DNA of 54,007 nucleotides from a virus. Taxonomy: Duplodnaviria > Caudoviricetes. The stretch is taken from the IMG/VR virus record IMGVR_UViG_3300046011_010503, positions 1 to 54,007 of that record. One strand, written 5' to 3'. The notes beneath the pieces were generated by a model that was not told the origin of the DNA, searched no databases, and saw nothing but the letters and a program-made list of their open reading frames with translations. This document shows, in pieces, positions 12,401-54,007 of this stretch (the first letter of the stretch is position 1; every line of letters begins with the position of its first letter). A program made the translations under genes and the position numbers.

Positions 12401-15400
12401 TCACCCCGCACGGCCTGAGCGTCTTTAAACCACCCCTCTGACGTTCTACGGTAGACCTTTGCAGCGCGCAGTATCCGGTCAATCACTTCCGCGATTTTTT
12501 GCAGCAGCCGGCGTGCCAGTGGCTGAGAATACGCATGCACCGCATCCCAGAATTTCGGATCGGTCGAGCTGTCCGCCAGGTAGTTCGCAATCACCTCTTC
12601 AACGCCAATATCCTTCATGCCTTGGGTCAGCTCTTTTGATTTCATCAGGGAGCGGTACCACTCTGCCTCGCGCAGTGCAGCTGCGTTTCCGGAATCGGTA
12701 AACTGCTTCTGGAAAAAATCCATCAGGCGCGTTTTAAGGTATGGCTGCTTTGCGAAAATATCGTGCAGGACTTCATGCATTACCACGTAGACAGAGGGGT
12801 CAGTGCTGCTATCGTTGAGATAGACAACCCCGTTGTGGCGGAACCCGTTGAACATGTCGGAGAGCTTTTGCGCTTCTCTGGTCAGCTTAATGGTTTTGAT
12901 CGGGACATCAAAGACTCGTTGAGCCAGCCCAATAAAACCCGCGCTTTGTGGTGCTGCATCGACCACCTGAATATTTTCAGGTCCAATTGAAACGCCCTGG
13001 TTCGCAGCGGCTTTGGCAAGCGCAGAGATTGCGCCAAACTGGAAAGGATCTGCAGTTTTGCCCGGCTGCTCAGTTGAAAGTGTGGGGCGTCCTGATCGGT
13101 GGAATTGGGTGTCATTGGGGGATTGTTCTCCTCGTTGAAATCGAATGTCGGGATTGGATGGATTGAACACTCCAGTGTTGCCGGTTGCGCTTTTTATTTG
13201 GTTTGGGGAGAAAACCACATATTGGTCTTGAACTCCCCCGGCATCGTAATGATTTTTTAGTAAAATGCCATCAAAGCCCTCTTCTTTTGCTTTATTTATT
13301 ATTTCTGCACGCCCATATTTTCCACCCTTTAAATCAACAGTTTTTAATTTTTCTATGTTTAAATAAACTGGTTTTACCGATCCGATATTTTTAGATGGAA
13401 AAAGTTCATCATACCCAGAATATTTAGAAGCTATCTCTGGGTTTGTGGAAAAAAACATCCCTTGTTCACCCTTTACTTTATTTAATCCAGTTCTAAATTC
13501 TGTAAAATTCTTATCTGTCCCATGATACACCACCAACGGCTTCCCGCTCTCATCCACAACCTTGCTCGCATTTTCCGAATCGTTCTCCCAATCGCCAAAC
13601 CAGGCTTTAAATTCTGTGGTATAGATTTGAGATTGTTCCTTGCGCTGGAAGAGGGCGGAGGACTCGGGTTTTGTTATATTAACAATCCGAGCGTTCACCC
13701 CGGTCGTGTTCATCAATGTTTTGTCTTGAAAGGTGTTTTGCGGCAACTTCTCTTCGCTACCATTTACCTCTTCAAGCCAATCTCTAAAATCAGAGGCTTT
13801 TCTGTCTGACCGGAAAAAAGCTCCCTCTCCCATAATTGCAACGATTTTTCCGCCTGGCTTTAAAAGATCGTATGCGTGCCTTACGTGCTCGATGTCGGCA
13901 CCACCGCCAAAAGGAGGATTCATAACAATGGCGTCGTATCCTCCCTCGTTGTAATCCATAAAATTATGTTCGACAACATTATATCCTTTTGCTTGCAGAA
14001 GCTCCCTTAGGCTGCTGCTTATTTCGACAACGTCCGGCTTAACCCCTGCAGCCCTTATCGCATCGGCAATGTTTCCGTTACCCGCACTCGGCTCAAGAAC
14101 CTTCATCCCTTCGGTAATTCCAGCATCCCGAACCATTTGCTCTGCAACTGGTTTTGGTGTTGGGAAAAAATCTACCCCAACATTTTTACCGATAAGACTA
14201 CGCTCAAGCTCTTTTATTTTATCAACAACAGGAGCCTTACCCCGGTATTTTACATATTCTCTCAAAGCGGAAGAAAGCATTATTGGATTTTCAAAACCCA
14301 TTGTCTTTAAGCGCCTGTGGCGTTCAAGCGCATCAACAATCTGGTTGTATTTGGCATCATTTTCACTCAACAGACTGGTAAGTTTTTCCAGCGCATCTAT
14401 TTCCGACTGATCTTTAATTACCTGAATTCCGCTGTCCTTTCCAACTAATCTAAAATACAATTTTTTTATTGCCGCTTTAGACCCGGGCCTGCTCTCCACT
14501 TTCTTAAAGAGGTCACTCAAGTTTTCTGCCCACAAATTTGGATAATAAGCCTTTGACGCATTTAACTTATCAATTGTTTCTTCTGTGGCAGGTTCCCCTT
14601 CGTGCTTCTCTCGCTCGGAATATGTCGGGTATTTTAGATTAACCTCATTGCGTTTCGCTTCGTTAACTAATCCGTCAAGTTGCTCAATATGGGTTTTTGC
14701 GCTGACTCCATCAAGAAATTTAACCTCTCCAGCATCAATGGCAGCGGCGATGTTCAGCATCGTCTTGCCTATTCTCTTCTGTTTGTTAAGAGCGGCATCA
14801 GCGCTACTCGCCATTGCTGCCCGGCGGGCGGTGTTTGTTTGCCGGTCCTGGTTTAAGCCCTCGTCCGCTTTGGCAATTATTTTTTCGGCATTGGTCCTTA
14901 GCTTGTCGGCACGCTTTACTGTTTTAACAGTTTCCTTCTCGACAACAGCGTCGGCATTAGAAACGTCTCCAGACTTCAAAGCCATAAACTTTTCAGCTTG
15001 CGCCTTTTCCGTAAACTGAAATCCAGGGGTTGCACCATTGCCTTTGTAAGAAGAGTAATACCCGCCAAGCTTTTTAGCTTTGACGTTCAGGTCATTATAT
15101 ATTTCTCTGTCAACACGGTTATTTAGGCGCACGACAAACAAGTCGTGACCCTTCTGGGTGTGCTTTGTTTCTATGAGCTGCATGCCGGTGTCGCCAATGT
15201 CAACTTTCTCAACAGTTGAATCGTCAATCTTTTCCTCTTTTCGTTTTTCCTTTATATTTGTAGAGGTAAGATCTTCGTATGTCCGGCGCTGCTCTGGAGT
15301 TAAATCCTCAACTTTTTTATATTGAAGGAATGTTTTGAATTCTGCAAGTGTTTCAGGATTTTTAATGGCTTTTATTGTCGCCTGGCGCCGGGCAATGTAT

Positions 15401-18400
15401 TCTTTAGTGTTTTTGTCAACCTCCTCTGCAAAAGCATCAAGATCCTTTTGTGTTGTATTATCAACAATCTTTTTGACCGAATCAGCATAGGTCCCATTAA
15501 AATCATGCACAATTCCCCGGGATAACCCATAAGTACTAAGCATGCTGTGATAGATAGACGAAATCAATTCACTTTTATTTTCCCCTGGGCGCATGTACGA
15601 GGTGTAATTCGAATAAATTTTCTGAAGAGCATCTTTTTTATTGGTGGACAACTCTGCCTTAATGTTGTTTTCCGAATCAACCAGTTTACTAAAAGTCATT
15701 TTAAAATCATCTATTGACAATTTTCCGTTATAGAGTTTTTTCTTAGTTTCTGTAAATGCACTATAAGTCATCTTGCCTGGGACAATAACCGGATCAAATG
15801 CTTTTTCTTCTGTCTTTTCAGATTTCTGAGCTTGGACCGCTAAAGGTTCAACAATCGCCTCTTTTTTTGGTACTTCTTTCTCTTTTACAGTAGGAACATT
15901 TTTAAACAAATCCTCCTGCTTCGTAATCATCGCTTCCCGCTCGTTCGCATCAAACATCGGCAACCCCTGGAGCGAGACTGCAGGGCGGACAGCATCTTTC
16001 TCTCTCTGTTGAGCTTCGATCTTCTTTTCTTCTTGCGTCCTGGTGTCAGCAGCCTTTGTTCCTTCAAACAAATCCCCAGTCACCAGAGGACCTTTTTTCT
16101 GCTGAGGTGGAGCAACATTCTCTCCATTAAAAAGAGGCAGCCCAGCCAGGCTTGGACCTGTTCCGGAAAACATATCGGCCTGATTTGGATCATACCCGGT
16201 CTTGCGCTGAAAAAGAGTCGGCTCCTCGGATGTAGATTTAGAATACCGCTTTTCATATTCTCCAGCTTGGCGCGACATCTCGGCATAGGCTTTGTGCGCT
16301 GCCTCGTATTCGTTTTTTGCGGCTTTTATTTTAGAGCGGACTTCCGGAGTGGTTGGAAACTCCTTGACGAAAGCCACAAAGTCACTCGGGGTATTAAAGT
16401 CTTCAAGGGTAATTCCTGTTTTTGCAGTGAAATCTTTGTTTTCTACAAAGAAATCATGCATTGTCACATCAGCGCTCTGGGCACCTTTGCCACGATAATC
16501 AGAGGAATTTCCACCAGTTGCGAGATTTACGTCTTTTTGAGAAAAAGCATTGCGGTATTTCGATATTATTTTCGAGGCTTCGAGCTGTCCGGATAGTTCG
16601 TCAATGCGAGACGACAAAGAAACTACTGCTCCAGCTGCGGAGTCTCTTCTCTCAACAATCGATTTAAAGTGAGTCGCATCTTCAGCATGGACTCTCCCAT
16701 CTGTCGATCCAGATTTGACGAGCTGTTCAAGAGGTAGTGCAGATCCGGATCCTTTTCCTCTTTTGATAGGGGTTTTACTTTTGGTTTGTTCTGCGGTACC
16801 GGCTGTTGTTGCTTCTGCGGGGACTGCTGCGGAAGGCTCGGTTGCTGTCGGCTCTGCAGATGCGCTTCCACCATCTTTTTGTTCTGTTCCAACCGCTGCT
16901 GTGCTGCTTGCGGGTCCTTGGGCGGCACCGGGTCCAGGTACTGCATTTTGTACTGGTTCATACTTCTTATCCCCTTCAAAAGTTTGGGCTCTTCCGGCAT
17001 CCTTTGCTTTGTAAAGCTGATCGTCAGCAGCCTTTACACCTTCACCAAATCCAGCGGAGAACGAAACGCCGGTCAGTTTGCCATCATTAAACGGAATACT
17101 GCTTAAATCACTGCGGGCAGACTCGACACGTTGTAATATATCATCTTTCGAAACTCCTTGCTTGGGAATTATTAAAAATTCCTCGCCGCCATGCCGACCA
17201 ACGAATGCAATATCATTGAGTCTGTTTGACAAAACAAGTCCAGCGCTCTGCAAAACGTCATCTCCAACCTGGTGACCGTGAGAGTCGTTGACGTTTTTAA
17301 ATTTGTCCAGATCAAGCAGAACGACGGGAGGAGGGTTTTTATCCCCTTCCCGCATTGAGTATCCCATTTCGTACGCTGCACGATCAATCCCGGTTCTATT
17401 CATGAGTCCGGTGAGTTGGTCCGTCTCACTTGCTTTGTGAAGTTTTGCGTATTCAGCGTCTTTTTCTTCAGGTGTTAACGCTTTAAATTTGTCAGGAACA
17501 ATTATTGCCCGGTCAACTTTTTTGGCAGGCACGGCTTCAGCGGCACCCTCTTGAACTGCGGTAGGCGCAAACTCATCGGTGGGCGCCGGCGCATTATCCA
17601 CAACCGGCTCACCGATCGGACTTAACAAAGCTTGGGTTTCTTGACCTTTTTCATTGGCAACCCCTTCTGGTTGAGGTGTAGTAATAATTCCCGACTCCTC
17701 GGGGCTTGGTTCGTATGCCTGGATGATTCTGTCGGCTTCACTGTCTGAAAGCTGGGACTGTATCTTTCCCCTATCTTCCTGTGGAAGTGAATAAAAGGCT
17801 TCTGGTGATTCAATATCAAAATCACTTAATAACTTCTGTCCGCTAGGTCTCTGGGTCTGCGATTGTTGCGATGGAGATTTTGCGAGTTCGGCACCATCAG
17901 GAGTAAATTCAACTTTTGGCGCGGTCTCTCCCATCGTTGTGTATGGGCTTGTGTTTTGTTGAACCTGTGAACCATCTGACGGTTTTGTTTTTGGTAATGC
18001 CTTTTTAGTTAGGCGTGTTACTCCACCAATTCCAATATGCAGGGCCATGCTTGGGAGAGCTGCCAAAACAAAAGTCTGCAGGTTCTGCCCGCCGTTTTTG
18101 ACCAGGTCATCAACAATGGGTTGGTACTTCTCCGCCTTGCTAGGGTTGCTCTTTATTGCGTCCCTGACAGCCAACACGGAAAGATAGTCCTGGAGGTTCT
18201 GCTGAGTGACTTCGGTTGTACCTTCAACGAGACCAGCCTCTGCAGTTCCGGCAACCGCTCCGATCGCTTTAACCAAAACCTTTTTTGCCACACTGTTCGC
18301 AACATTCTTTGTGGCTAGTGCGGTAATTTTTTCAACGGTGGGTATTTTCTTAACCAGCTTTGAGGCGCTTGCCGCCCCTACGGTGACTAGTTCGCTCACA

Positions 18401-19494
18401 GACTCAAGAACTGTGGCAGGTATTGAATAATAGGTCCCGTACTTATTGAGTATCTCTGGTTCGTCAAAACCTTTTTTTATTAGCGGATCTGCAAAGTTTC
18501 CTTTTTCTATCATCTGCCCGCCGACTACCGGGAGCGCTGCGCTTGCAACAAGTTGGGGCAACATGTCTGCGGCAAGTATGGAAACTGCCTTGGCTGTCTT
18601 AAGCGTATTTGGCAGGGTCCAGGCTTCTTTCTTCATAGCCCACTCTTGCGCCCAACCAGTAGAAGGGGCGGAGTCTGTCGCCTGGTTTTTTACTACATCA
18701 GACATAACTCCTTTGGCATATTTGACATAGTCATCGCCGATACCCTCGTCATAAATAGGACCGCCTTTAGCGTCAGCCTTTGCTCTTTTGTCGAGGATAT
18801 TAATGGCATTAGCCTCTTCCATGAACTGGACATTTTTCTTATAGCTTTTCTTAATGGCGTCAACGAATCCGGCACCCCACGACGGCTCTTCCAATTCTGT
18901 TGAAACAGCTTCTTTTGGCATATACTGCTTAACATTAATCCCCATACTTGCCAGGGTAATTGGCTCCACATTAGGTTGCGACTCAGCCGCTGACTTCTGC
19001 CCTAACGAATCAGAGAGCTTTCCAACAACCCGGTCCACATAATCTGCAGTATAGGAAATGCCATCATAAAACCGAGGTGTGCGCGGCACCTCAAATACTC
19101 CGGTTTTCTGCATGTTATTCCAGACCTCTTGCGCTCCACTGGGTCCGGCGTGGTAATATATGGCAGCAAAGCGCGGGTCTCCACCGTATTTTCTTAAACC
19201 GTCCTCCAGGTACTTTTGAGCGTACCGGCGCGACACCTCTGGTTTGCGCTCGTAGTCGGGATCAAACGGCTCCCCGAGGCTCGCTGCAATCTCTGGGGCC
19301 GTGTCCGGCATGATTTGATACTGTCCGCGCGCGCCTTTTGGAGACCGGGAAGAGTTGGGGTTATTTCCACTCTCAACACCCCCGATAACGTCCACCAACT
19401 GATCGGCGTAGGCTATGGGAGCAATCTGAGAGGCATTCTGCTTTGGATAGTATACAGAGGGATCATAACCAAGGAGCTCTTTGAGAGTCGGCAT
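6469..19494 (-). CDS. Giant polyvalent virion/ejection protein (4341 aa): SLT lytic transglycosylase, GGDEF, N6-adenine methyltransferase, two ADP-ribosyltransferase-like domains, HExxH zincin, EEIQSD-motif domain, helical C-terminus
   Basis: VESG...GARGQYQIMP...YHAGP (SLT); DLDKFKNVNDSHGHQVGD and GGEEF; FFPTP/VLEPSAGNG/NPPF; two WFGDWEND...SKVVD.NGKPLVVY(H/R)G modules; HEVLH; located after tail/ejection genes. Confidence 0.9.
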   Translation of the reverse strand: MPTLKELLGYDPSVYYPKQNASQIAPIAYADQLVDVIGGVESGNNPNSSRSPKGARGQYQIMPDTAPEIAASLGEPFDPDYERKPEVSRRYAQKYLEDGLRKYGGDPRFAAIYYHAGPSGAQEVWNNMQKTGVFEVPRTPRFYDGISYTADYVDRVVGKLSDSLGQKSAAESQPNVEPITLASMGINVKQYMPKEAVSTELEEPSWGAGFVDAIKKSYKKNVQFMEEANAINILDKRAKADAKGGPIYDEGIGDDYVKYAKGVMSDVVKNQATDSAPSTGWAQEWAMKKEAWTLPNTLKTAKAVSILAADMLPQLVASAALPVVGGQMIEKGNFADPLIKKGFDEPEILNKYGTYYSIPATVLESVSELVTVGAASASKLVKKIPTVEKITALATKNVANSVAKKVLVKAIGAVAGTAEAGLVEGTTEVTQQNLQDYLSVLAVRDAIKSNPSKAEKYQPIVDDLVKNGGQNLQTFVLAALPSMALHIGIGGVTRLTKKALPKTKPSDGSQVQQNTSPYTTMGETAPKVEFTPDGAELAKSPSQQSQTQRPSGQKLLSDFDIESPEAFYSLPQEDRGKIQSQLSDSEADRIIQAYEPSPEESGIITTPQPEGVANEKGQETQALLSPIGEPVVDNAPAPTDEFAPTAVQEGAAEAVPAKKVDRAIIVPDKFKALTPEEKDAEYAKLHKASETDQLTGLMNRTGIDRAAYEMGYSMREGDKNPPPVVLLDLDKFKNVNDSHGHQVGDDVLQSAGLVLSNRLNDIAFVGRHGGEEFLIIPKQGVSKDDILQRVESARSDLSSIPFNDGKLTGVSFSAGFGEGVKAADDQLYKAKDAGRAQTFEGDKKYEPVQNAVPGPGAAQGPASSTAAVGTEQKDGGSASAEPTATEPSAAVPAEATTAGTAEQTKSKTPIKRGKGSGSALPLEQLVKSGSTDGRVHAEDATHFKSIVERRDSAAGAVVSLSSRIDELSGQLEASKIISKYRNAFSQKDVNLATGGNSSDYRGKGAQSADVTMHDFFVENKDFTAKTGITLEDFNTPSDFVAFVKEFPTTPEVRSKIKAAKNEYEAAHKAYAEMSRQAGEYEKRYSKSTSEEPTLFQRKTGYDPNQADMFSGTGPSLAGLPLFNGENVAPPQQKKGPLVTGDLFEGTKAADTRTQEEKKIEAQQREKDAVRPAVSLQGLPMFDANEREAMITKQEDLFKNVPTVKEKEVPKKEAIVEPLAVQAQKSEKTEEKAFDPVIVPGKMTYSAFTETKKKLYNGKLSIDDFKMTFSKLVDSENNIKAELSTNKKDALQKIYSNYTSYMRPGENKSELISSIYHSMLSTYGLSRGIVHDFNGTYADSVKKIVDNTTQKDLDAFAEEVDKNTKEYIARRQATIKAIKNPETLAEFKTFLQYKKVEDLTPEQRRTYEDLTSTNIKEKRKEEKIDDSTVEKVDIGDTGMQLIETKHTQKGHDLFVVRLNNRVDREIYNDLNVKAKKLGGYYSSYKGNGATPGFQFTEKAQAEKFMALKSGDVSNADAVVEKETVKTVKRADKLRTNAEKIIAKADEGLNQDRQTNTARRAAMASSADAALNKQKRIGKTMLNIAAAIDAGEVKFLDGVSAKTHIEQLDGLVNEAKRNEVNLKYPTYSEREKHEGEPATEETIDKLNASKAYYPNLWAENLSDLFKKVESRPGSKAAIKKLYFRLVGKDSGIQVIKDQSEIDALEKLTSLLSENDAKYNQIVDALERHRRLKTMGFENPIMLSSALREYVKYRGKAPVVDKIKELERSLIGKNVGVDFFPTPKPVAEQMVRDAGITEGMKVLEPSAGNGNIADAIRAAGVKPDVVEISSSLRELLQAKGYNVVEHNFMDYNEGGYDAIVMNPPFGGGADIEHVRHAYDLLKPGGKIVAIMGEGAFFRSDRKASDFRDWLEEVNGSEEKLPQNTFQDKTLMNTTGVNARIVNITKPESSALFQRKEQSQIYTTEFKAWFGDWENDSENASKVVDESGKPLVVYHGTDKNFTEFRTGLNKVKGEQGMFFSTNPEIASKYSGYDELFPSKNIGSVKPVYLNIEKLKTVDLKGGKYGRAEIINKAKEEGFDGILLKNHYDAGGVQDQYVVFSPNQIKSATGNTGVFNPSNPDIRFQRGEQSPNDTQFHRSGRPTLSTEQPGKTADPFQFGAISALAKAAANQGVSIGPENIQVVDAAPQSAGFIGLAQRVFDVPIKTIKLTREAQKLSDMFNGFRHNGVVYLNDSSTDPSVYVVMHEVLHDIFAKQPYLKTRLMDFFQKQFTDSGNAAALREAEWYRSLMKSKELTQGMKDIGVEEVIANYLADSSTDPKFWDAVHAYSQPLARRLLQKIAEVIDRILRAAKVYRRTSEGWFKDAQAVRGEMVKMMAAAVRGASREEFYGAVREALFMRDGSGQQQDQTRTAEFKRWFGDWENDPENASKVVDENGKPLVVYRGEHGKVRTKVRTTHLVPTTDEKSLLEEIGDVPSSLIQTALGSVSFVNNPETAATYAESPNNRELSKTAEQPRVIPAYLSIRNPVIQNLDDPFVEMGDIVKAIGIDKAIKIAIKHSYQIELTNNWDENFSEKYSSVEELLRKSPKRIKELYLDAYFVFDDIDAVRYFKDAGYDGAIHMGNGESMDDIEYKVFSTTQIKSATGNTGAFDPSNPDIRYQRNNNTLNDQNARTLAAEYGLSFVGMQEGVPGYPGTALFNDKNGNTFAARTESELESRVSEMTDGVLFQRPIADTFYSPTLKAVQALKQDRGTGDQFFAMISKAPGVKESEWKWMGLDDFLKGKQSVTKKEIEDFVRQNQVTVQEKYNKQGDKKIPFEGLSDEEVAEHYENYMDQEIPLGATRQELIDEMVEANENDMGGERAEVETKYQQYTLPGGENYREVLLTLPLKVVRPATEKSFKVVENGYKSSHWEEPNVIAHTRLDDRTGPNGEKVLFVEEIQSDWARDVRDKGVRQNPVNELPSDYTFNEVVVKEAPNGWSDTRIDVKDGSGNIVWKEYNGTIESAKKNALIDLNHNMKLKGVPNQPFLKNWQELTLKRILRMAAEEGYNRVAWINGEQTADRYNLAKVAESINHSKNADGTYNFHVTDKIGRDILDRMNVPESELAGIFGKDVANKIVNRDGEFDKRRDYSFFTNRGSAVGEVFKDGRWYIKWQDGSESGTYLSKEDAAREADHVTRNYVLSPEHNRPKILKGTDLKIGGEWAHNLYDVQIPKFFEKYGKKWGTKVEPVSLGRDAMPMPTQDKYRGGYFITQDGPHFDTIEEAREWSIKNSPTQQSITITDEMRDSVMHEGQPLFARRKQELLPDGSVPKKKYVSTKLRRPKAEQIAAQEQIEDLTQYIKDRFKVPDIEGVTEERRPLFEKHWDNIATRAELEKELMQYEMYSDAVNFKYHHEGLIKKELKRKEIQQKIYDYARKINLVGEPRNQVDTLMLRTTGTSRNFFKALNIMDTVMEKRLQAKALEEVRLKFDATRKRIAAARAGRQPAPWTAEHTEAVEKYLDQFMFMSAKEEKAYEEAMASLEQNKENFDPEDALGYDSKELAALTEMVKKNLLGMSSSDLLNVMAELTQIERTGKTAKMLADAQAAAKLASDGFFAGVEIRRVTKNSEKSLAERSLGRKERGLARNAKEFFMDTMDPQRVIEWITGNFTEAGRREASVFKQNTWNKLRDASVKSVDSMIKATKHIREIHKPLVDAMKSLPLKYAIKAEFTDGVNDRKIPLPGRVETHELTLNEMMFVYANSKNEGNILHLFGSGWTREGMLQVENTIPEVAKDVVDKMHRYYDVVQYPKMNGVFRRLFGIDMPRIENYFPIRNLLSAKVEDSMLSEMLARFSNKSSVQKGMTKARQGSAAPFREMDYMGVVFANLRQSEHFVANAEAVRDVRKFLNYDDVAQALANRDKDFDAKAWSNDFLKRMAYGKVEAIRSDAVAKTADALRYYYSCYALGWNPKTWVKQWSSLFVGGKYVENKARLAQSALKMMAQRGNMIEDIKSKSLFMKNRNSRFEREIQEMFDKHESTMFLNTTAEVMNKIRQVSMWGISTSDMISSSILWDAKYTEEINKGIPQEQAVRNADEAIEKSFAGGGLAYLTRGQTSQGLTRYLTMFTSDLAKAMNTQYETMRTARQNGLSKTAIAVMMTSLIPAALIFTVDTFDPEKFKDDPEGFLGYILSQIYGAFPLFNQIGDGLYKNLVADPIRKLRGAPTKPLFQGSSSIKIPWMDIADELYSAAGAVKKAIGTKEGDDVGEAVGKAVKASVGAAGMLTGLLPRQPINTAQAAYGLITGTEDDWRRLLYSAGSLKDMSISGGVARGILGNKEISAEQYGEMSDAQREIVDQKIQKIIEKKERLDELKYSRE
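11535..12295 (-). repeat. ADP-ribosyltransferase-like module, copy 2
   Basis: EFKRWFGDWENDPENASKVVDENGKPLVVYRGE...EYKVF...QIKSATGNTGAFDPSNPDIRYQ. Confidence 0.7.
13135..13625 (-). repeat. ADP-ribosyltransferase-like module, copy 1 (conserved flanks shared with copy 2)
   Basis: EFKAWFGDWENDSENASKVVDESGKPLVVYHGT...FFS...QIKSATGNTGVFNPSNPDIRFQ. Confidence 0.7.
13670..14180 (-). other. N6-adenine DNA methyltransferase domain of the giant protein
   Basis: DFFPTP, VLEPSAGNG (motif I), VMNPPF (motif IV, NPPF at 13909-13920). Confidence 0.85.
16980..17430 (-). other. GGDEF diguanylate cyclase domain of the giant protein
   Basis: DQLTGLMNR, DLDKFKNVND.HGHQVGD, RHGGEEF (GGEEF at 17176-17190), SFSAG, ADDQLYKAK..GR. 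Confidence 0.92.
19010..19390 (-). other. SLT (lytic transglycosylase) domain of the giant protein; boundaries approximate
   Basis: Catalytic ES motif (GVESGN), GQYQIMPDTA, YHAGP. Confidence 0.85.
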
Positions 19495-37187: not shown

Positions 37188-37289
37188 ATCAGGAAACCCC
37201 GATACACGGCGATGCGTCAGGGACATGGGATCACTCACATTATTGTTTGATTATTGTAAAATTCCCTCCCTGACATTAAGATCGCCGTT
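37151..37289 (-). ncRNA. Putative ~140-nt structured leader or small RNA
   Basis: Nested stems ACGGCGAT/ATCGCCGT (37281-37288 with 37206-37213), TGTCAGGGA/TCCCTGACG, GGGA/TCCC; hairpin TATCGGG/CCTGATA; then terminator; lies directly behind a sigma70-type promoter. Confidence 0.65.
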
Positions 37290-37295
37290 ATTGAA

Positions 37296-37324
37296 ATAAT
37301 AGTTTATGTGATGCGTTTTTGCAA
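37296..37324 (-). promoter_or_regulatory. Sigma70-type promoter
   Basis: TTGCAA-17 nt-TATTAT. Confidence 0.7.
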
Positions 37325-37337
37325 CAAATAATTATAG

Positions 37338-37537
37338 TTTTGCACAAAATAATTTTAGTTCGTTGCGAATTTGCAACAGAATATCGGTGGGTTTTTGATG
37401 GTTTATACAGCTATAGAGCCATGTTGATAACGTGTTGATAATTGATTTTTGCTGTTTTTATGGGGTTTTAAGTGGGTGTTTTTGTGGGTTATTATAGAAA
37501 TATGAATAAAATAAGTGGTTTTCCTGATTGTGGAAAA
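37338..37537. promoter_or_regulatory. DnaA-box-like cluster in AT-rich intergenic DNA
   Basis: TTTTGCACA 37338, TGTTGATAA 37422 and 37433, TGTGGAAAA 37529. Confidence 0.4.
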
Positions 37538-37567
37538 CTAAAGTATTTAACATAAAATTAACAATGC

Positions 37568-37729
37568 TTAACTGCTGAGCGCTTCACCACATTTTGGGCA
37601 GCGATCGTATTTGACGTCGGGTGGAGCCGACATGACAGGGGTGCCAGTTTGACTCAAGCGAACCTCGTAGGTAACATTGGAATTTGCGGGATGGACATCA
37701 TGTCCGAGAACATGGTCACAATTTTTCAT
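37568..37729 (-). CDS. 53-aa Zn-ribbon-like protein (below ORF-track cutoff)
   Basis: Hand translation MKNCDH...RCPKCGEALSS; GAGG RBS. Confidence 0.6.
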   Translation of the reverse strand: MKNCDHVLGHDVHPANSNVTYEVRLSQTGTPVMSAPPDVKYDRCPKCGEALSS

Positions 37730-37830
37730 AAAAACCTCGCTTGCTGGTCTATGGGTAGGGTAATGAGTACACCCTCGCAGTATTTGGAGGAGAAAGAAGA
37801 GGGGTTGTTTCTAGCCCCTCTGTGTGATTG

Positions 37831-38181
37831 TTAGACAGACCCTTTTACTGTAGATAAAAACTCTACCCAAGTGCGCCCTAGGAGTTTTACTGAGTGTTGA
37901 TCAGGCCATCGGTGTAGCGACACTTCACTGAGTAACTCGTGGTTCTCCCACAAATCTTCTTCGTCGCAGTTAGTAAAATACTGTCCGCCAGCCTCATCCT
38001 TCCAATACAGTTTTGGTCCATGCATGAGATAACATCCGGGTTTATCTGACCGGTAAATATGCAGCTCCTGGCGAGGCCCCTTTATTGGGGGATAACTGGA
38101 TGAACGATCTTCTTGCCTCTCAATCCACCCCTGGACCAGCGCCCAGATGAGGGATGGTTGATAATCTCGTTGTGTTGCCAT
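37831..38181 (-). CDS. Hypothetical protein
   Basis: Start re-set to MATQRDY (AGGAG RBS). Confidence 0.6.
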   Translation of the reverse strand: MATQRDYQPSLIWALVQGWIERQEDRSSSYPPIKGPRQELHIYRSDKPGCYLMHGPKLYWKDEAGGQYFTNCDEEDLWENHELLSEVSLHRWPDQHSVKLLGRTWVEFLSTVKGSV

Positions 38182-38224
38182 GTTTGTACTCCTGTAGGTT
38201 AAAAAATGAAAAGCATTGCCAACC

Positions 38225-38395
38225 TTATGCGATCTCATGCGATGCAGGATACACAATTGTGGTATAATCTCTATCCTCGATTAGTCCGTCCTCAGGAAGG
38301 GTATAGCCACAATCTACGATCGCTTTTACCATTTCAACAACGGTATTAAAAAGTACCGGCTCTCCAAACTGTTCATTGATATTTTTTACTGACAT
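38225..38395 (-). CDS. Hypothetical protein
   Basis: Start re-set to MSVKNINEQF (GGAGG RBS). Confidence 0.55.
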   Translation of the reverse strand: MSVKNINEQFGEPVLFNTVVEMVKAIVDCGYTLPEDGLIEDRDYTTIVYPASHEIA

Positions 38396-38396
38396 T

Positions 38397-38675
38397 TTAA
38401 ACCTCCAGCCACTTGACGTTGTGACTTCCGAGTCCGCCACACTGGCAGTCAGACATGCCGCACAAATTACGCTCAACTTTGGCGTACTGATAATCGGACA
38501 GCAAGTCGTACCATGACACTAAAAAACCTGCTCCATAAGGCTCGCAGCAGGCGTCAAAGCGGGCCTTGCTTACACGTACAGTTACGGAGTTTAGGGCGTT
38601 GTGAAACCCACCCCATATTTCTATTTTTGTTGTTTTTTGAGTAACTGAAGTTGAAGGGGATTTTGAGAGGCTCAT
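38397..38675 (-). CDS. Hypothetical Cys-rich protein
   Basis: LCGMSDCQCG; first gene behind the 38.8 kb promoter. Confidence 0.6.
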   Translation of the reverse strand: MSLSKSPSTSVTQKTTKIEIWGGFHNALNSVTVRVSKARFDACCEPYGAGFLVSWYDLLSDYQYAKVERNLCGMSDCQCGGLGSHNVKWLEV

Positions 38676-38782
38676 ACATTATCCAGTCTGCCATTACCGG
38701 TTGGCGCCGTTGCGTGTTGTACAGTCCCGCTCTGCTGCCTGTATCGGTCAGGCTCCGTGGTTCATCGTGTGAACGTTGTGAT

Positions 38783-38811
38783 AATATAACACCATCTCAA
38801 TTAAAAGTCAA
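38783..38811 (-). promoter_or_regulatory. Sigma70-type promoter for a moron-like block of small genes
   Basis: TTGACT-17 nt-TATATT. Confidence 0.7.
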
Positions 38812-38849
38812 TAGCTAATTGCGTCAATTTACTAAATAAATTAAGTCCT

Positions 38850-40544
38850 CTACCTGAAAAGCGTTGGCAAATACTTCTTAATTGTCAATATGTCCTGGTT
38901 GTACTTCCCGCAAATTTCCATCATGCGCTGTAGCTCTTTATCGCGCATCATGTCTGCTAATAAAATTGAATCCTCTGCAGACATGCTTCCCCATGCCTGT
39001 TTTGCTTTTGCGCAGTGGCGCACAGTGCCCAGGTGCGTGCCGTGGTTGCGCCATAGTTTCGAAACTCCGTGCGGAGGAAGTGTCAAACCCGACATAACCA
39101 CAACATCTCCAAGCGTCCACTCGTCATGTCCGTACTGCAGCAGAAATTCTGGATGCATGGTTATTCGCATAATTTCCATATCACGGGCTTCTTTCGTGAT
39201 TTTCCACCATGCCTTATTAACAAAGTGTATGGCTGCCATGCGAACATGGCAACTTAATTGCTTATCTCCATACTTGAAAAATTCTCCCTGACGGTCATCA
39301 ATTATCCAATTTTCGTAGAATCTGGTCCGGTCGCGCTCCAGGTGGGTTGCATGCTGGTCAACAATGCTGTATTCTTCCTTGCGCATCATCATATCAATGT
39401 CGGCAATGTAGGTGTAGTCTTGTCCCTCATCCCAATCATACAGAAGACGCATTGATGCAGCCTGCAGGCCGGTTAAAATTACGGGGAGCTCTACAATCTC
39501 GATCCCGGGCGGCGTAATAGCCCGCAGCTCATCAGGGTACTTTCCGGACACAGCTACTTTAATCTTCTGTGCAATAGGCTGCAGGGTGGCGTAGTGTGCG
39601 AATAGCGGGATGTATGCAGCGTACTTCTCGTCAACCATGGTTGCGATTAAGAGTGAGCCATCGTGCCGGTCGAATGGCGGGCGCTTTTTCTTGGGAGGCT
39701 CGACCAGCTCCACACTCGGCACGCGCTTGGGCTGGGCTGCATGATAGAGCTCCCATGCGCAGACAATTGGCAACCCCTGCACGTCGGGAGGCAGATCGCT
39801 TATTCCAACCTGTTTTACCCGCTTCCATGCAGTTCTGGCCTGGTTAACCCAATGTAAGTCAAAACCGGATGGCAATGCGTTCCATACATCCTCAACCCAA
39901 TCCCGGGTTCCTCGCATTGGCTCACCATCAGTTTGTGTTGATGATGTAACTTTTCCAATTACATCACCCAAGGAATTTCTCACGCCAGTGAAATGGTCCA
40001 TTTTGACACCAGGAATAAAGAGCTTATTGATTATTTTTGACCCTCGAGGTCCGGACATAGCAACACCAGGACGGACCAGCACGGTTGGGCGGCATGGTTC
40101 GGGTGGGAATACCTGGTAGAATGGTGATTTGAGGTAGGTGTTAATTTCGCAGCAGTATGCGTCTGCAGGGTGCTCTTCAGCGTATCTTAGTAGCTGTGTG
40201 AGATCCATGTGCCGCCATACCTCGTCAGTATCAACAATTAGATAGAGAACTGCTTGCGGGTAGCGCGCTGCAGCTATTTCCAGTGCCTTTAAATATTGCA
40301 GGTCTTGGTCAGGGCAGTCGAAATTCTCCTCATAGATTTTAGACAGATAATCAGCTGGCCCCCAATCAGTGCGCTTTTCGAAGTACTTCTCCACTGCTGC
40401 TTTAACGGTGTTTCCGCACTCACCGTTCCAACCCAACTCTGAGTGCAGCAGTATAACGCCTGAAACGTGAGGGAGAACAGAGTCAAGCATCGCCTGAACA
40501 AATTCGTGCCCGCGGAATGTTTTGCAAATTGCTATGACTTCCAT
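38850..40544 (-). CDS. Two-domain glycosyltransferase (GT-A folds)
   Basis: N-terminal LIVDTDE (GT2-like DxD); C-terminal YIADIDM...HDE (second DxD domain). Confidence 0.7.
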   Translation of the reverse strand: MEVIAICKTFRGHEFVQAMLDSVLPHVSGVILLHSELGWNGECGNTVKAAVEKYFEKRTDWGPADYLSKIYEENFDCPDQDLQYLKALEIAAARYPQAVLYLIVDTDEVWRHMDLTQLLRYAEEHPADAYCCEINTYLKSPFYQVFPPEPCRPTVLVRPGVAMSGPRGSKIINKLFIPGVKMDHFTGVRNSLGDVIGKVTSSTQTDGEPMRGTRDWVEDVWNALPSGFDLHWVNQARTAWKRVKQVGISDLPPDVQGLPIVCAWELYHAAQPKRVPSVELVEPPKKKRPPFDRHDGSLLIATMVDEKYAAYIPLFAHYATLQPIAQKIKVAVSGKYPDELRAITPPGIEIVELPVILTGLQAASMRLLYDWDEGQDYTYIADIDMMMRKEEYSIVDQHATHLERDRTRFYENWIIDDRQGEFFKYGDKQLSCHVRMAAIHFVNKAWWKITKEARDMEIMRITMHPEFLLQYGHDEWTLGDVVVMSGLTLPPHGVSKLWRNHGTHLGTVRHCAKAKQAWGSMSAEDSILLADMMRDKELQRMMEICGKYNQDILTIKKYLPTLFR

Positions 40545-51706: not shown

Positions 51707-51936
51707 TTTTTTATTTCTTTCAGAATAATGTTTGTGCAATAAGCCATCATGTGCAATATTTCTCTCTGATCGTAGCAGTGTGGGGCCCTGTGTGCATTTC
51801 CAGAAAAGGTGCATGCACAAATTTTACAAATCCAATGCCCTTTATCTTTTGGATATCCAAGCCCATGTTCATAAAATTCAAGATCGTGCGTTTCAAATTT
51901 GCACGCTTCGCATTCTTCTGGTTTTTCGTTATACAT
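51691..51936 (-). CDS. Small Zn-binding hypothetical protein
   Basis: CEAC...CKIC. Confidence 0.55.
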   Translation of the reverse strand: MYNEKPEECEACKFETHDLEFYEHGLGYPKDKGHWICKICACTFSGNAHRAPHCYDQREILHMMAYCTNIILKEIKKWKSK

Positions 51937-51979
51937 TTTATTATTCCATCAACGACCGATAAATGTTTGAAGTGGAGCG

Positions 51980-52072
51980 CTACATATTGTAAAGGTAAAT
52001 AAACCCTAACACTATAGGAGCTATTAATAGAGCAATAACCATTATTTGAGGCCAACCGTGTAAATCTTCCAT
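51980..52072 (-). CDS. 30-aa single-TM peptide
   Basis: GGAG RBS; MEDLHGWPQIMVIALLIAPIVLGFIYLYNM. Confidence 0.4.
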   Translation of the reverse strand: MEDLHGWPQIMVIALLIAPIVLGFIYLYNM

Positions 52073-52146
52073 AAAATTTAGCTCCATTTTAAACCTTATT
52101 TGTTGGTTGATGTATGCCGAACTTCCATTTGAAGCGGTACCCCGTT

Positions 52147-52464
52147 TTAAGCTGCGCCAGTTGTACGAAGTGCGCTGGCTTCTGCTGTTTCCTGCGGCGC
52201 GTCTTCGTATTTATGTATTTCTTTTTCCCCGTTTGCCCATCCGTCTTCAAAATCAACAACAGGCGAAGAAACCATTTTTGCAAACGGCAAAACATCGCTC
52301 CAGTTCATGTTGTTTTGCGCCCAATCAATAAAGTCAAAATCATCGTAATTATCAAGGTATTCATCATCAATTCCGTTTTCTTTCATATTATCTTCAACAA
52401 TTTTTAATGGAATTTCCCATTTTGAATTGTCTGGCATTTCTACGATCATTTTTCTTTTAAACAT
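52147..52464 (-). CDS. Cassette A gene: acidic hypothetical protein
   Basis: GAGG RBS; MPDNSKWEIP...DWAQNNMNWSDV; flanked by inverted repeats. Confidence 0.75.
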   Translation of the reverse strand: MFKRKMIVEMPDNSKWEIPLKIVEDNMKENGIDDEYLDNYDDFDFIDWAQNNMNWSDVLPFAKMVSSPVVDFEDGWANGEKEIHKYEDAPQETAEASALRTTGAA

Positions 52465-52531
52465 TTAATTCCTCGCTTTTGAATTTGTATTCGCGCCGCC
52501 TCAAAGTTTCCAAAGCCAGCGCATTTTGTAC

Positions 52532-52578
52532 AACGTGGGCCGTACGCACCATCGTTTTAATGTGGTGCTACGGCAGTT
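52532..52578. repeat. attC-like site 2
   Basis: AAC gtgg GCCGTA c GCACCA-11 nt-TGGTGC TACGGC a GTT. Confidence 0.8.
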
Positions 52579-52754
52579 GGTTGATGTTCCGGTTTTGCTT
52601 CCACAGCATTCCGTGGCGCATGGTCGGAACAAATTGTGACTTTAAAACTCCCACCTGCAATTTTTCTTTTAATACAATCGAGAGACGCCGCACACGTTGG
52701 GCACAAATCTTCACCGCCTAAAAAAGCCTTGAGATCCTCCATGTTTTTTCGCAT
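52557..52754 (-). CDS. Cassette B gene: small Cys-containing protein
   Basis: GAGG RBS; CPTC...C...C; flanked by inverted repeats. Confidence 0.6.
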   Translation of the reverse strand: MRKNMEDLKAFLGGEDLCPTCAASLDCIKRKIAGGSFKVTICSDHAPRNAVEAKPEHQPTAVAPH

Positions 52755-52801
52755 TTAGCGCCACCTCAAAGTAAATGGTTTTCAAAACCGGAATTGCAAC
52801 C

Positions 52802-52881
52802 AACGGTTTGCGCAACGCATGCTGATTGCGCCTATAATATTTTTACTACAAATCAAGCGCAATTTGCATGCTTGCGCTGTT
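52802..52881. repeat. attC-like site 3
   Basis: AAC ggttt GCGCAA c GCATGC tg ATTGCGC-loop-GCGCAAT tt GCATGC TTGCGC t GTT. Confidence 0.8.
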
Positions 52882-53595
52882 AGGTGCTGTATGGCAAATT
52901 TCCATAGTGTTCTGCGCGGGGCTGTATTGCGCCCAGGACGGGCGCTCTTTGAATTGCTTTATGAACAGCCACTTGCGAGACCTATTAACCCATACGCCAC
53001 CCATGCCTTTTGTCTTTCCGCGCTGCTTGACTACGCCATCGACAACGTAGTCTTTCTTTGCCGCAGTCATTCCGAGTGCCGTGAATCCACTGGCCTTGTA
53101 TATCGTACCGCAATGACCGTCGCTATCGTCAGCGTATGTCACGATTCCCTTTACGTATGCCATTTTCTGCAACAACCGAATAGTAACTCCGATCATTCTG
53201 CTTTCTGAATTTCTTGGGCACTCGTCTTTCAACACCAACCTCTTGATTTCCCACCACAGAGCTTGAGTGTTTCGATTCCAGTACCCTTTCAAGTCGGTCG
53301 CGTTTGGCGTGCCGTAAGAAATAGCGCCGACAAGGTGGCCATCGAAAAAAGCTCCAAACGACAGAGTGGCGAGAAATCCTTGGTCGCCAAGATAGTGCCA
53401 CTTACGATACGCAAGCGCGGCACAGGAAGAATTAACAACCTTAAAAACAAGGTGGAGCGGAGAGGTCGGAGTCAAACCGCCATCTGTCTCTTGGAATAGA
53501 GACTGTGCTATCGCTGCACCATCTCCGCATGTATTTGTTTTCGGCGCACGACGCTCCGTGTCTTGCCCCGCGCCTATAATTTCATAATTTGCCAT
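52846..53595 (-). CDS. Cassette C gene: Mom-like GNAT-fold DNA modification protein
   Basis: GG.TPTSPL, WHYLG, EIKRL...PRNSES, VTYAD...H.GTIYKASGF; start re-set to 53595, inside the cassette boundary. Confidence 0.8.
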   Translation of the reverse strand: MANYEIIGAGQDTERRAPKTNTCGDGAAIAQSLFQETDGGLTPTSPLHLVFKVVNSSCAALAYRKWHYLGDQGFLATLSFGAFFDGHLVGAISYGTPNATDLKGYWNRNTQALWWEIKRLVLKDECPRNSESRMIGVTIRLLQKMAYVKGIVTYADDSDGHCGTIYKASGFTALGMTAAKKDYVVDGVVKQRGKTKGMGGVWVNRSRKWLFIKQFKERPSWAQYSPAQNTMEICHTAPNSASMQIALDL

Positions 53596-53604
53596 ATTGC
53601 ACCT

Positions 53605-53652
53605 AACGTCCGGCACACGCCGGATGCCTACTGGTTTACGGCTGTGCCTGTT
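53605..53652. repeat. attC-like site 4
   Basis: AAC gtcc GGCACA c GCCG-16 nt-CGGC TGTGCC t GTT. Confidence 0.8.
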
Positions 53653-53870
53653 GTTTGCAGTTGGCAGCGACTCCGCAGCTTCCTTTCCGCAGCCCAACCA
53701 CGGCAACATTCCGCACTACAGAATGAGTTTGAGTGTGTGTGCGGCTTGCCACAACGAAGGCACTTCCGCTCTGATTTTATATAATCCATAGACCGGTCTC
53801 TTGGCCCGCTGCCCCAAGGAAAGCTACCCAACATTGACGCTAAGAAAGCCGCCCCTATTAAACCACGCAT
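53628..53870 (-). CDS. Cassette D gene: small protein with CxxC...FCSxxC zinc finger
   Basis: CLRCGK...FCSAEC; AAGGA RBS. Confidence 0.6.
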   Translation of the reverse strand: MRGLIGAAFLASMLGSFPWGSGPRDRSMDYIKSERKCLRCGKPHTHSNSFCSAECCRGWAAERKLRSRCQLQTTGTAVNQ

Positions 53871-54007
53871 CAGAACTTCCTTTCTTGGCTGCGGAACTAT
53901 AATGGCGCTCTCGCTGCCAATTGAAAACAACGTTTGATAAACTGGTGCTGTAAAATGAGGCGTCCAGCCGGAGAGCCGAAGCTCTGGTCCGTGTAAACTC
54001 CCTCGTT

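Follow-up and report, generated by a model that had tools for sequence, protein, structure and literature searches.

Among recombination sites recognised by shape and not by sequence, integron cassettes are the textbook example, and the origin of new cassettes is still an open question. Xer recombinases also use a folded single-strand site, the attP hairpin of CTX phage, by which the whole phage integrates at dif; in the pdif modules of Acinetobacter plasmids, genes lie between inversely oriented recombinase sites that resemble terminal inverted repeats, the sites being conserved 28-bp double-stranded XerC/XerD targets; and T4-type phages carry promoter-stem-loop regulatory cassettes, in which a sigma-70 early promoter and a stem-loop flank an ORF. 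For classical integrons, the attC account consulted here gives a match of only about 7 bp (the R box) between cassette ends and an attC hairpin measuring 57-141 bp, whose loop varies and whose central spacer leaves 5-6 nt unpaired on each arm, the extrahelical bases being carried by the L'' arm, which is the 3' arm of the recombined bottom strand (PMC5027507). A CALIN is defined by two or more attC sites, called with the IntegronFinder/HattCI models, and no neighbouring integrase. Clusters of attC sites without an integrase (CALINs), with methyltransferase cassettes, have been reported in virulent phages, and a cluster was reported in phage P12002L with one site recombined by IntI1, which is not equated here with the long-repeat cassettes described below (Qi et al., 2023; PMC9892861). 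The consulted sections of that report cover attC sites and motifs of the form GTTRRRY; they describe neither repeats that span the cassette nor second stems, and in the literature we found no description of cassette-wide repeats, second stems or an Xer-like recombinase for phage cassettes.

The window analysed here is a stretch of 54,007 nt from a virus (Duplodnaviria; Caudoviricetes; IMG/VR record IMGVR_UViG_3300046011_010503, positions 1 to 54,007) that ends in an array of four cassettes (Table 1). A repeat search located four inverted-repeat end pairs at 52160-53931, where an earlier note on this DNA had placed them; these are exactly the GTT...AAC pairs of the whole window (at least 18/22 matches, separation 100-1500 nt), and 30 dinucleotide shuffles of the window gave none by the same criteria. 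Mismatches are confined to positions 8-11 of the arms (A, 8 and 11; B, 9-11; C, 10-11; D, 8 and 11), position 11 reads G versus A in 4/4 cassettes, and a second stem lies further in in each of them, all as that note had read the sequence. In cassette D the repeat call runs to 45 nt (73%; 53650-53694 / 53887-53931) and covers both the outer 21-nt stem and the second stem. The window spacers, 41-74 nt long, were overlooked in the earlier note and are themselves the attC-like hairpins; that of cassette B is flanked by AAC and GTT and folds at about -12 kcal/mol on either strand.

At the far end of the array, the first 12 nt of a remnant (+ strand, 52102-52113) are a direct repeat of the left arm of cassette B (52576-52587), and the remnant is read as having neither a GTT partner nor a complete hairpin after it. 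At the other end the array may extend past the contig end, possibly with a recombinase gene, because the contig stops at 54007 within a spacer-like stretch. One public contig reaches 337 nt past the window end. The contigs of the public runs showed no circle, empty site or joint that would reflect excision. The stretch from 52100 to 54007 has no DNA similarity to cultured phages, and Rfam, which holds no attC family, returned no match for the region at E values up to 1. A promoter-stem-loop cassette was considered and rejected on finding 0 promoter-like sites on both strands of 51900-54007, although the host's promoter type may differ; the same interval has one terminator-like site, inside cassette C, and none on a spacer.

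Table 1. Features of the cassette array at the right end of the window (strand as given; a point marks spacers).
Feature	Position	Strand	Description
Remnant, far end of array	52102..52159	-	3'-module-like piece and half a spacer hairpin
Cassette A	52160..52534	-	arms 52160-52181 / 52513-52534, 22 nt, 91% complementary; second stem 52194-52201 / 52492-52499
Cassette A ORF	52147-52464	-	105 aa, PHROG 17928; crosses the 3' module, stop within remnant 52102-52159
Spacer hairpin of cassette B	52535..52575	.	41 nt; 6-bp stem, one bulged base, upper stem, 11-nt loop
Cassette B	52576..52804	-	arms 52576-52597 / 52783-52804, 22 nt, 86%; second stem 52613-52619 / 52758-52764
Cassette B ORF	52557-52754	-	65 aa, no family
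Spacer hairpin of cassette C	52805..52878	.	74 nt; inverted repeat; long imperfect stem, two interruptions 6 bp apart; -22 kcal/mol
Cassette C, C-type frame	52879..53607	-	arms 52879-52900 / 53586-53607, 22 nt, 91%; second stem 52914-52922 / 53565-53573
Cassette C ORF	52846-53598	-	Mom-family, PF25680 1.1e-29; ATG within stem 1
Spacer hairpin of cassette D	53608..53649	.	42 nt, one bulged base (folding)
Cassette D	53650..53931	-	arms 53650-53670 / 53911-53931; second stem 53685-53694 / 53887-53896; fold z -4.36
Cassette D ORF	53628-53870	-	80 aa; weak treble-clef zinc-finger match PF09889, E 0.02, below cut-off
Spacer-like stretch upstream of D	53932..54007	.	coding strand ends ..AAAC then GTT; contig terminates here

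The same design was found as 206 pairs in 94 of 145 loci (610,622 b), a sample reached mostly via one end type (C-type) and biased towards C-type neighbours; shuffled loci, a control named beforehand, gave 4 pairs, so that end matches as good as these are rare by chance. There are 136 distinct 5' arms and most frames are unique. Motif statistics are given for a non-redundant set of 124 cassettes from contigs other than the window. Units occur only in co-oriented arrays with a common hairpin design between them, and in each unit the ORF lies between a 5' and a 3' module and a hairpin spacer (38-141 nt) comes last. Read along the coding strand, the 5' module opens with GTT-RNNN-GMAAT and continues through stem 1 (10 nt) and a loop with ATTATAG at its end to a GC-rich stem 2; the 3' module begins at stem 2', passes through a loop with TAWGGA at its end and then stem 1', and closes with ACAKC-NNNY-AAC. 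The second stem lies about 34 nt from the cassette end. The interior-loop motifs are conserved between cassettes. Conservation in the arms is limited to positions 1-4 and 8-12, with no common sequence past 12 nt; position 4 is a purine in 123/124 and positions 5-7 do not fit the RRY of the classical boxes, which read RYYYAAC for R'' and GTTRRRY for R' (GTT and AAC were imposed by the detector).

Pairing between the two ends is selected, and it is specific to the cassette, as had been proposed. All four Watson-Crick pair types are seen at every one of positions 13-21, and stem 1 forms 9.2/10 pairs between a cassette's own arms versus 2.8 for swapped partners; the stem 1 detector demanded at least 9/10 pairs, and the weight rests on the swap control and the diversity. 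Changed columns in 75 related frame pairs comprise 109 compensatory and 60 one-sided changes (unpaired position 22 excluded from the compensatory count). The second stem covaries as well, with a median of -15.8 kcal/mol for own ends versus -9.35 for swapped ones, and in 75% of 101 cassettes (chance about 9%) the inner end regions pair better with their own partner than with any of 10 swapped ones. Over the 124 cassettes the mismatch at positions 10-11 keeps both its sequence and its polarity; with the A-bearing arm placed first, position 11 of the 3'-arm complement is G in 101 of them.

Non-Watson-Crick pairs read as G.T on the non-coding strand in 40 cases versus 3 at positions 4-9 and in 10 versus 2 in stem 1, and position 11 does so in 97/102. 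The folding strand is probably the non-coding one, because of this bias and because that strand is the better folder in silico in 81 of 86 circle junctions. When a cassette is circularised in silico, its ends and spacer fold into one long hairpin that runs about 45-55 nt past the AAC/GTT core on each side, in agreement with the roughly 45 nt predicted earlier; the circle junction has a median of -46.7 kcal/mol versus -29.1 in the array and is better in 85/86. Within the array context GTT and AAC are paired, and beyond them only 27-53% of R box positions 4-7. The suggestion that a linear cassette could fold end to end is also borne out, closing in both minimum-energy and centroid folds.

The spacer design is common to 86 distinct spacers (median fold z-score -3.95), with A after AAC conserved in 81/86 and C before GTT in 84/86, neither of which was imposed by the detector. 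The top fold class (23/86) combines a single unpaired A with a stem of 6 bp, a bulge of one nucleotide and an RRAC tail (4 nt), and close variants of it make up most other spacers; on the non-coding strand, which folds better, the bulged base belongs to the 5' arm. Set beside the classical system as far as the cited portion describes it, the units resemble integron cassettes in their co-oriented arrays and mostly single ORFs, in AAC and GTT triplets as imposed by the detector, in an ORF followed by its own hairpin, in exchange before GTT and in an R box that is completed by the cassette's own two ends. The spacer resembles attC in folding imperfectly into a hairpin that has an unpaired spacer and a bulged base, in its variable loop and in the better folding of the non-coding strand; including the 7-nt boxes it measures 52-155 nt here versus 57-141 bp. 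By the same partial comparison, end complementarity reaches about 45-55 nt in two stems (22 nt plus 8-10 bp) versus 7 bp, a conserved 2-nt mismatch stands 10-11 nt out from the core unlike in classical integrons, the bulge is on the opposite arm, and the unpaired spacer is 1 and 4 nt versus 5-6 nt per side. These features, with a recombinase that lacks the IntI insert (below), agree with the earlier expectation of a substrate different from standard attC. The published attC cluster of Tetrasphaera phage TJE1 differs in turn, yielding one pair at threshold without the arm motifs.

Comparison of loci shows the same upstream cassette and spacer followed by a different downstream cassette in 17 locus pairs, with the converse in 1; among cassettes with at least 90% identity, 5 pairs have a common downstream flank and different upstream flanks, and 0 pairs show the converse. 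These alignments place the cassette breakpoints at the boundary between spacer and GTT, as in integrons, at a resolution limited to the common C-GTT letters, and the integron pattern of an ORF with its own site and a crossover at G/TT of the next unit is thus found here. Spacers are sometimes exchanged too, because both flanks differ in 5 of 19 near-identical cassette pairs. One earlier proposal, that each unit evolved as an autonomous element, is not supported: the units have no recombinase or transposase of their own, lie only in co-oriented arrays, exchange at the boundary of spacer and GTT, and share end modules.

A gene for an Xer-like tyrosine recombinase adjoins the array upstream in 2/2 viral contigs that encode it, at 26 nt in L013 and 27 nt in L159 (51% identical), in the same orientation as the cassettes and on the array side that corresponds to the window's 54007 end. 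The protein matches PF00589 at 1.8e-35, its best solved relatives are archaeal XerA, and in alignment with VchIntIA (2a3v) a stretch of 62 residues in IntI4 (183-244) corresponds to 20 in this protein; TIGR02249 scores 141.9 bits in two stretches, below the integron-integrase cut-off of 265. The first cassette after the recombinase in L159 is paired only over the 8-bp R box. PF00589 has no match in the window, where the contig is 76% complete with the array at its end, and a tyrosine recombinase is absent from the record of a 95%-complete relative (G001) and from that of a 168-kb contig with 7 cassettes. A single-query recombinase search of viral contigs recovered only the query itself, an 11-member alignment search added L159 as one further array-linked copy, together with 7 distant recombinases that lack arrays, the genome collection held no close relative, and tblastn over all loci found no additional array-linked recombinase. 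The likely enzyme, linked to the arrays by the two viral contigs, is this Xer-like tyrosine recombinase without the integron-integrase insert; unlike integron integrases it is co-oriented with the cassettes and the carriers are phages. The cleaved strand is uncertain, because the bulge lies on the arm beside the inferred cleavage, opposite to classical attC.

For this enzyme class the nearest precedent would be CTX attP, where an Xer-family enzyme acts on a folded single strand with a mismatched centre, but CTX-type sites are single and lie at dif, whereas here there are arrays of exchangeable cassettes. Likewise pdif sites are conserved, whereas the arms here vary by cassette and complementarity alone is kept. 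No dif-like 11-6-11 site was found among the arms of the 124-cassette set. An assignment to Xer/dif-type elements (pdif, IMEX), whose conserved double-stranded sites have two ~11-bp arms and a 6-8-bp centre, was rejected, the arms being conserved only at positions 1-4 and 8-12 and the arm itself not being palindromic. Ends of IS200/IS605-type or other transposons were also rejected, as the units occur only in arrays and three viral records (G000-G002) have no resolvase, Y1 transposase (Y1_Tnp) or rve integrase.

Cargo across the cassettes includes DNA methylases, Mom and Lar among others, and counter-restriction genes are the majority of the family-matched cargo proteins. The C-type end modules bracket at least eight unrelated enzyme families and give them common first and last residues, and because one module pair encloses so many families, the end modules behave as a reusable frame and not as the private ends of one gene. 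Of the 79 C-type 3' ends with enough upstream sequence, 12 have no matching 5' arm. Codon-position entropy of the C-type 5' end was set aside because it is confounded by indels. None of the homologues of the cassette A protein (L005-L007) lies within a cassette.

The repeats are probably the outer part of an extended structure-specific site in an integron-like, phage-borne cassette system. Cassettes would be exchanged by crossover between a spacer and the next cassette's GTT. A cassette would leave as a circle, or the array would become single-stranded, and both modules and the spacer of one cassette would then form, on the non-coding strand, a single long imperfect hairpin with the AAC/GTT core at its middle and not at its base. 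The T.T/G.T pair at positions 10-11, present only in the folded form, and the spacer bulge could signal the folded state and its polarity to the recombinase, which may be supplied in trans or encoded past the contig end. In a phage, which lacks the single-stranded stage of conjugation, the long stems may stabilise the folded site, for example by letting a small double-stranded circle extrude a cruciform. Somewhat more tentatively, phages may possess a structure-specific cassette system of their own, distinct from integrons, with a hairpin of about 150-250 nt made of both ends and the spacer, a mid-hairpin crossover, a compact Xer-like recombinase without the domain thought essential for integron chemistry, and frames that are used repeatedly to capture unrelated anti-restriction genes, whose first and last residues they supply.

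Complementarity could instead be inherited, the ends being halves of an older, long palindromic empty frame into which genes were inserted; the pairing would then be kept by descent and by hairpin- or cruciform-templated repair and be dispensable for recombination, which would need only the AAC/GTT core and the spacer hairpin. The C-type frame with its many enzyme families and common terminal residues, contigs in other runs that match the frame ends only, and the R-box-only pairing of the first L159 cassette all fit this origin, but templated repair would erase the mismatch that is conserved at positions 10-11 in 124 cassettes, and the excess of compensatory changes and the conserved interior-loop motifs also speak against it, which leaves it unlikely. 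The near-identical C-type ends (about 70 and 45 nt) on contigs with different cargo might alternatively act as short homology arms when co-infecting phages undergo general recombination; yet most frames and arms are distinct, such linkers have no need to complement each other, and neighbours switch at the boundary of spacer and GTT, outside the shared modules, so we regard this as very unlikely.

Action in RNA, with cistron ends pairing in the mRNA for processing (e.g. as an RNase III stem), stability or translational control, would account for stems that enclose single ORFs whose starts and ends overlap the modules, and a 22-bp stem with a central internal loop is like the RNase III sites of phages. 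The chance of this is nonetheless slight: the wobble-compatible mismatches are on the non-coding strand (50 versus 5 in all, apart from position 11) and would be A.C and A.A on the mRNA, in P12002L the arms have the same polarity but the genes are encoded on the opposite strand, there is no Rfam match, the spacers have no terminator-like site, and the breakpoints indicate exchange of DNA. Terminal inverted repeats that begin with GTT and end with AAC also recall transposon-like units (MITE/IS style) with double-stranded repeats bound by a transposase, a reading that is most improbable with arms that share nothing past 12 nt, no transposase in G000-G002, co-oriented arrays only, structured spacers and no target duplications at the junctions examined.

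Under the preferred reading of an extended structure-specific site, what is unusual here is a folded site several times longer than the classical one, with the crossover in mid-stem and a mismatch that exists only in the folded state, together with an enzyme without the integron-specific domain and frames reused around unrelated enzymes. Such a system is a testable means for phages to shuffle anti-defence genes, would supply new structure-specific sites for engineering and, if the reading is true, would be a natural system in which cassette birth can be watched. The large terminase of this phage is at most 34.5% identical to that of any cultured phage. A scan of the genome collection with one 17-mer gave 17 matches, mostly chance ones inside unrelated genes, with a true array only in L137; more than 118 metagenome stretches, chance matches among them, were hit by the 17-mer. 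The system appears common across metagenomes, and the cultured Polaribacter phage P12002L has two cassettes with the same long repeat design.

The record is linear, with an estimated completeness of 76%, and its minus strand carries nearly all long ORFs, including every one with an assigned function, the small and large terminases among them. The cassette array forms the last 1.9 kb and reaches the contig end. The earlier note had read each cassette as bounded by its own long inverted repeats, with mismatches confined to positions 8-11 and position 11 always G versus A; the repeat finder gave the same positions for all four pairs (22 nt at 91%, 86% and 91% complementarity for A, B and C; 45 nt at 73% for D, where the pair takes in the second stem), and the mismatch pattern was seen in 4 of 4. 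GTT...AAC pairs matching at 18 or more of 22 positions were sought across the whole 54 kb; none lay beyond cassettes A-D, and 30 dinucleotide shuffles of the window yielded 0. All four ORFs run through their own 3' repeat arm, those of B, C and D to a stop codon within the hairpin that comes next, that of A to one in a remnant at the array's far end, after which no hairpin was found.

Positions of the cassettes and of other features in the window and in related records
Feature	Record	Positions	Strand	Remark
Cassette A	window	52160-52534	-	
Cassette B	window	52576-52804	-	
Cassette C	window	52879-53607	-	
Cassette D	window	53650-53931	-	
C-type ORF	window	52846-53598	-	aligned with 58 other loci
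Limits of likeness to cassette C	window	52863-52875, 52918-52944, 53530-53572, 53611-53612		other lake-water run contigs
Array remnant	window	52102-52159		3'-module-like piece, its first 12 nt the left arm of cassette B, plus half a spacer hairpin
Single 4341-aa ORF	window	6469-19494	-	phage structural region
Long spacer	window	52805-52878		
Long spacer	L013 (array locus of complete viral record G002)	221-295		
Long spacer	L008 (fetched locus)	10846-10919		
Recombinase stop to first GTT	L013	1889-1914		
Recombinase stop to first GTT	L159 (second contig with recombinase)	5856-5882		
Mom-like and methylase cassettes	P12002L (L170, NC_028924)	37263-38038, 38087-38882		
5' arm of C-type cassette	L115 (fetched locus)	1985 (oriented)	- as fetched	
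Seven cassettes	168-kb contig (L137)	G005:C2:1-8000		one end
Look-alike stretches	same 168-kb contig	G005:C2:166791-167848		other end

The product of cassette C belongs to the Mom family (PF25680, 1.1e-29), and a protein search with it led to a viral contig (L002) that shares the 22-nt arms, about 70 nt of the 5' end and 45 nt of the 3' end, and that encodes between these C-type ends not Mom but an N6/N4 DNA methylase (9.1e-39). Used as a search pattern, the 3' arm of the C-type frame matched 6 viral contigs, more than 118 metagenome stretches and 17 places in the genome collection, most of the latter being chance matches inside unrelated genes. A detector was set to accept GTT/AAC units with no fewer than 6 of 7 matches across the first box and 9 of 10 along the stem that follows; it picked up 206 pairs in 94 of 145 loci (610,622 bases), a sample skewed to neighbours of the C-type frame, versus 4 in shuffled loci. 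Units in both orientations were found in none of the surveyed loci, and gaps between neighbouring units are 160 nt or less in 93 of 100. Of 186 distinct cassettes, 148 have their longest ORF on the strand that begins with the AAT-type arm, and 32 have it on the opposite strand. Seven cassettes sit at one end of a 168-kb contig from a Thermoplasmatales MAG bin; this contig is probably no archaeal chromosome but a large virus or plasmid, either circular or with redundant termini.

Arm anatomy was described on the coding strand from 124 non-redundant cassettes. The 5' arm has the consensus GTT-G/A-K-N-N-G-M-A-A-T followed by 10 variable letters. In the complement of the 3' arm, GTT-G/A-K-N-N-G-M-T-G-T precedes these same 10 letters, and YTCC follows them; positions 10-11 are always mismatched because the former has A-A and the latter T-G. 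Past stem 1 lies an interior loop with conserved letters (5' side ...TGAAATTATAG, 3' side AGAA...TAWGGA), and after it a GC-rich second stem that begins a median of 34 nt from the cassette end; the AG letters beside stem 2 on both sides could form tandem G.A pairs.

Several results point to selection on the pairing of cassette ends. Every one of positions 13-21 shows all 4 Watson-Crick pair types, and stem 1 forms 9.2 of 10 pairs between own arms versus 2.8 with swapped partners, the own-arm value being imposed by the detector, so that the weight rests on the swap control and on the diversity. For stem 2, not used by the detector, own ends have a median of -15.8 kcal/mol versus -9.35 when swapped and in 75% of 101 cassettes no swap among the 10 did as well. 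A comparison of 75 pairs of related frames, which are phylogenetically non-independent, gave 109 compensatory versus 60 one-sided column changes in stem 1. The second stem that the earlier note described generalises to other cassettes, and covariation, which it proposed to look for, was seen. Its two proposed folds, a linear cassette closed end to end and a hairpin in an excised circle, are both predicted by modelling. As whole single-stranded DNA, cassettes B (z -1.92; 7 of 200 shuffles as good) and D (z -4.36; 0 of 200) close their ends, second stem included, in minimum-energy and centroid structures. In-silico circle junctions (last 55 nt, spacer and first 55 nt of the same cassette) have on the non-coding strand a median of -46.7 kcal/mol and 31 pairs between the flanks, versus -29.1 kcal/mol and 9.5 pairs in the natural array context, where the first box pairs at GTT/AAC and at only 27-53% of positions 4-7; the circle is favoured over the array in 85 of 86.

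The paired ends might instead act in the mRNA. Non-Watson-Crick pairs at positions 4-9 are G.T on the non-coding strand 40 times versus 3 on the coding strand, and in stem 1 10 times versus 2; position 11 is G.T on the non-coding strand in 97 of 102 cassettes, and the detector, which tallies matches only, is blind to this bias. Of 86 circle junctions, 81 fold more stably on the non-coding strand. The cultured Polaribacter phage P12002L has two cassettes with the same long-repeat arm design, their genes on the opposite strand, relative to arm polarity, from those of the window. Taken together, the G.T bias, the junction stability and the strand of the P12002L genes speak against an mRNA role.

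Among 59 distinct C-type ORFs, 22 encode N6_N4 methylases, 10 MT-A70, 3 C5 methylases, 2 Mom and 2 PAPS reductases, with one each of radical SAM, QueC and GNAT, and the 119 other cassette ORFs are mostly without a family, their matches including 5 N6_N4, 2 Dam and 2 Lar restriction-alleviation proteins. The C-type start codon lies inside stem 1, and the frame encodes a consensus for the first ~19 and last ~16 residues common to all C-type ORFs (MAN.EIIGAGQDTARRAPK and SPAQNT.EICHTAPNSA in the alignment), ends that are imposed on enzymes as unrelated as methylases of three families, Mom, PAPS reductase, radical SAM, QueC and GNAT. In other lake-water run contigs, likeness to cassette C is limited to its two end modules.

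Across loci, an identical upstream cassette and spacer adjoin a differing next cassette in 17 pairs and the reverse holds in 1, while both neighbours are alike in 7 and the spacer alone in 7. Where two cassettes share 90% identity or more (19 pairs), both flanks are the same in 9 and different in 5, the upstream flank alone differs in 5, and the reverse occurs in 0. Since these comparisons stand at 17 versus 1 and 5 versus 0, the usual unit is GTT...AAC plus the following hairpin, and the break falls immediately ahead of the next unit's GTT. From the 5 of 19 pairs in which neither flank is shared, the spacer, too, can be exchanged. Of the 79 C-type 3' ends whose upstream sequence was long enough, 12 had no matching 5' arm. 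One of these, in L115, retains stems 1 and 2 and has a first box of GTTGGGA versus ACCTAAC at its own 3' end, which suggests a hybrid cassette and occasional exchange within the first 9-12 nt.

Window gaps between units are 41, 74 and 42 nt, each with its own hairpin flanked by AAC and GTT. The 86 distinct spacers have one coding-strand design: AAC, an unpaired A (81/86), a 6-bp stem, an upper stem and loop, a 1-nt bulge on the 3' arm, the 6-bp stem, unpaired RRAC (its C in 84/86) and GTT. This exact geometry is the commonest fold class (23/86), with close variants making up most of the rest; the median fold z is -3.95 (83% below -2), and sites including the two 7-nt boxes measure 52-155 nt. 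Loops of longer spacers (74-76 nt) hold the same ATTATAG-plus-GC-rich motif as the one preceding stem 2 in 5' modules, an arrangement suggestive of a piece of a 5' module lodged within the hairpin.

A tyrosine recombinase was found in one of five viral records, the complete one (G002). This 279-aa protein has PF00589 (1.8e-35) and a SAM-like N-terminal domain, scores under the thresholds for XerA, XerC and integron integrase, and has archaeal XerA (4a8e, 5hxy) as its best solved relatives. Its alignment to the Vibrio integrase VchIntIA (2a3v) falls into two pieces, and a stretch of 62 residues in IntI4 is matched by 20 in the phage protein; the IntI-specific domain lies in this region. The phage protein groups with proteins of 43% identity or more in a subfamily of 11; beyond it, the closest relatives (~35%) carry Patescibacteria labels, which may hint at phage host range. 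No close relative was found in the genome collection, no tyrosine recombinase on the 168-kb contig, and no resolvase, Y1 transposase or rve integrase in three records. The link to the array comes from two contigs: in G002, 26 nt separate the end of the gene from the first cassette, which lies on the same strand; in L159, whose protein is the one other subfamily member found in viral contigs (51% identical), the gene ends 27 nt short of a 5' module, and co-oriented cassettes come after it.

Judged from sequence, the system is integron-like in its working and fell outside integrons in several membership tests. As in integrons, from the portion of PMC5027507 consulted, the unit is broken just before the next GTT; in contrast, the phage recombinase is without the integrase domain, and hairpin bulge position, unpaired spacer size and extent of end pairing differ. 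The sections of PMC9892861 drawn on here already report attC clusters with methylase cassettes in virulent phages and make no mention of cassette-wide repeats; of these phages, P12002L has the long repeats whereas TJE1 does not. No published account of cassette-wide repeats, second stems or an Xer-like recombinase for phage cassettes was found in the literature searched.

The 26-27-nt gaps between recombinase and array are a candidate docking (attI-like) site. Each contains a 4-5-bp palindrome and ends in TA before GTT, whereas in-array spacers end in AC.
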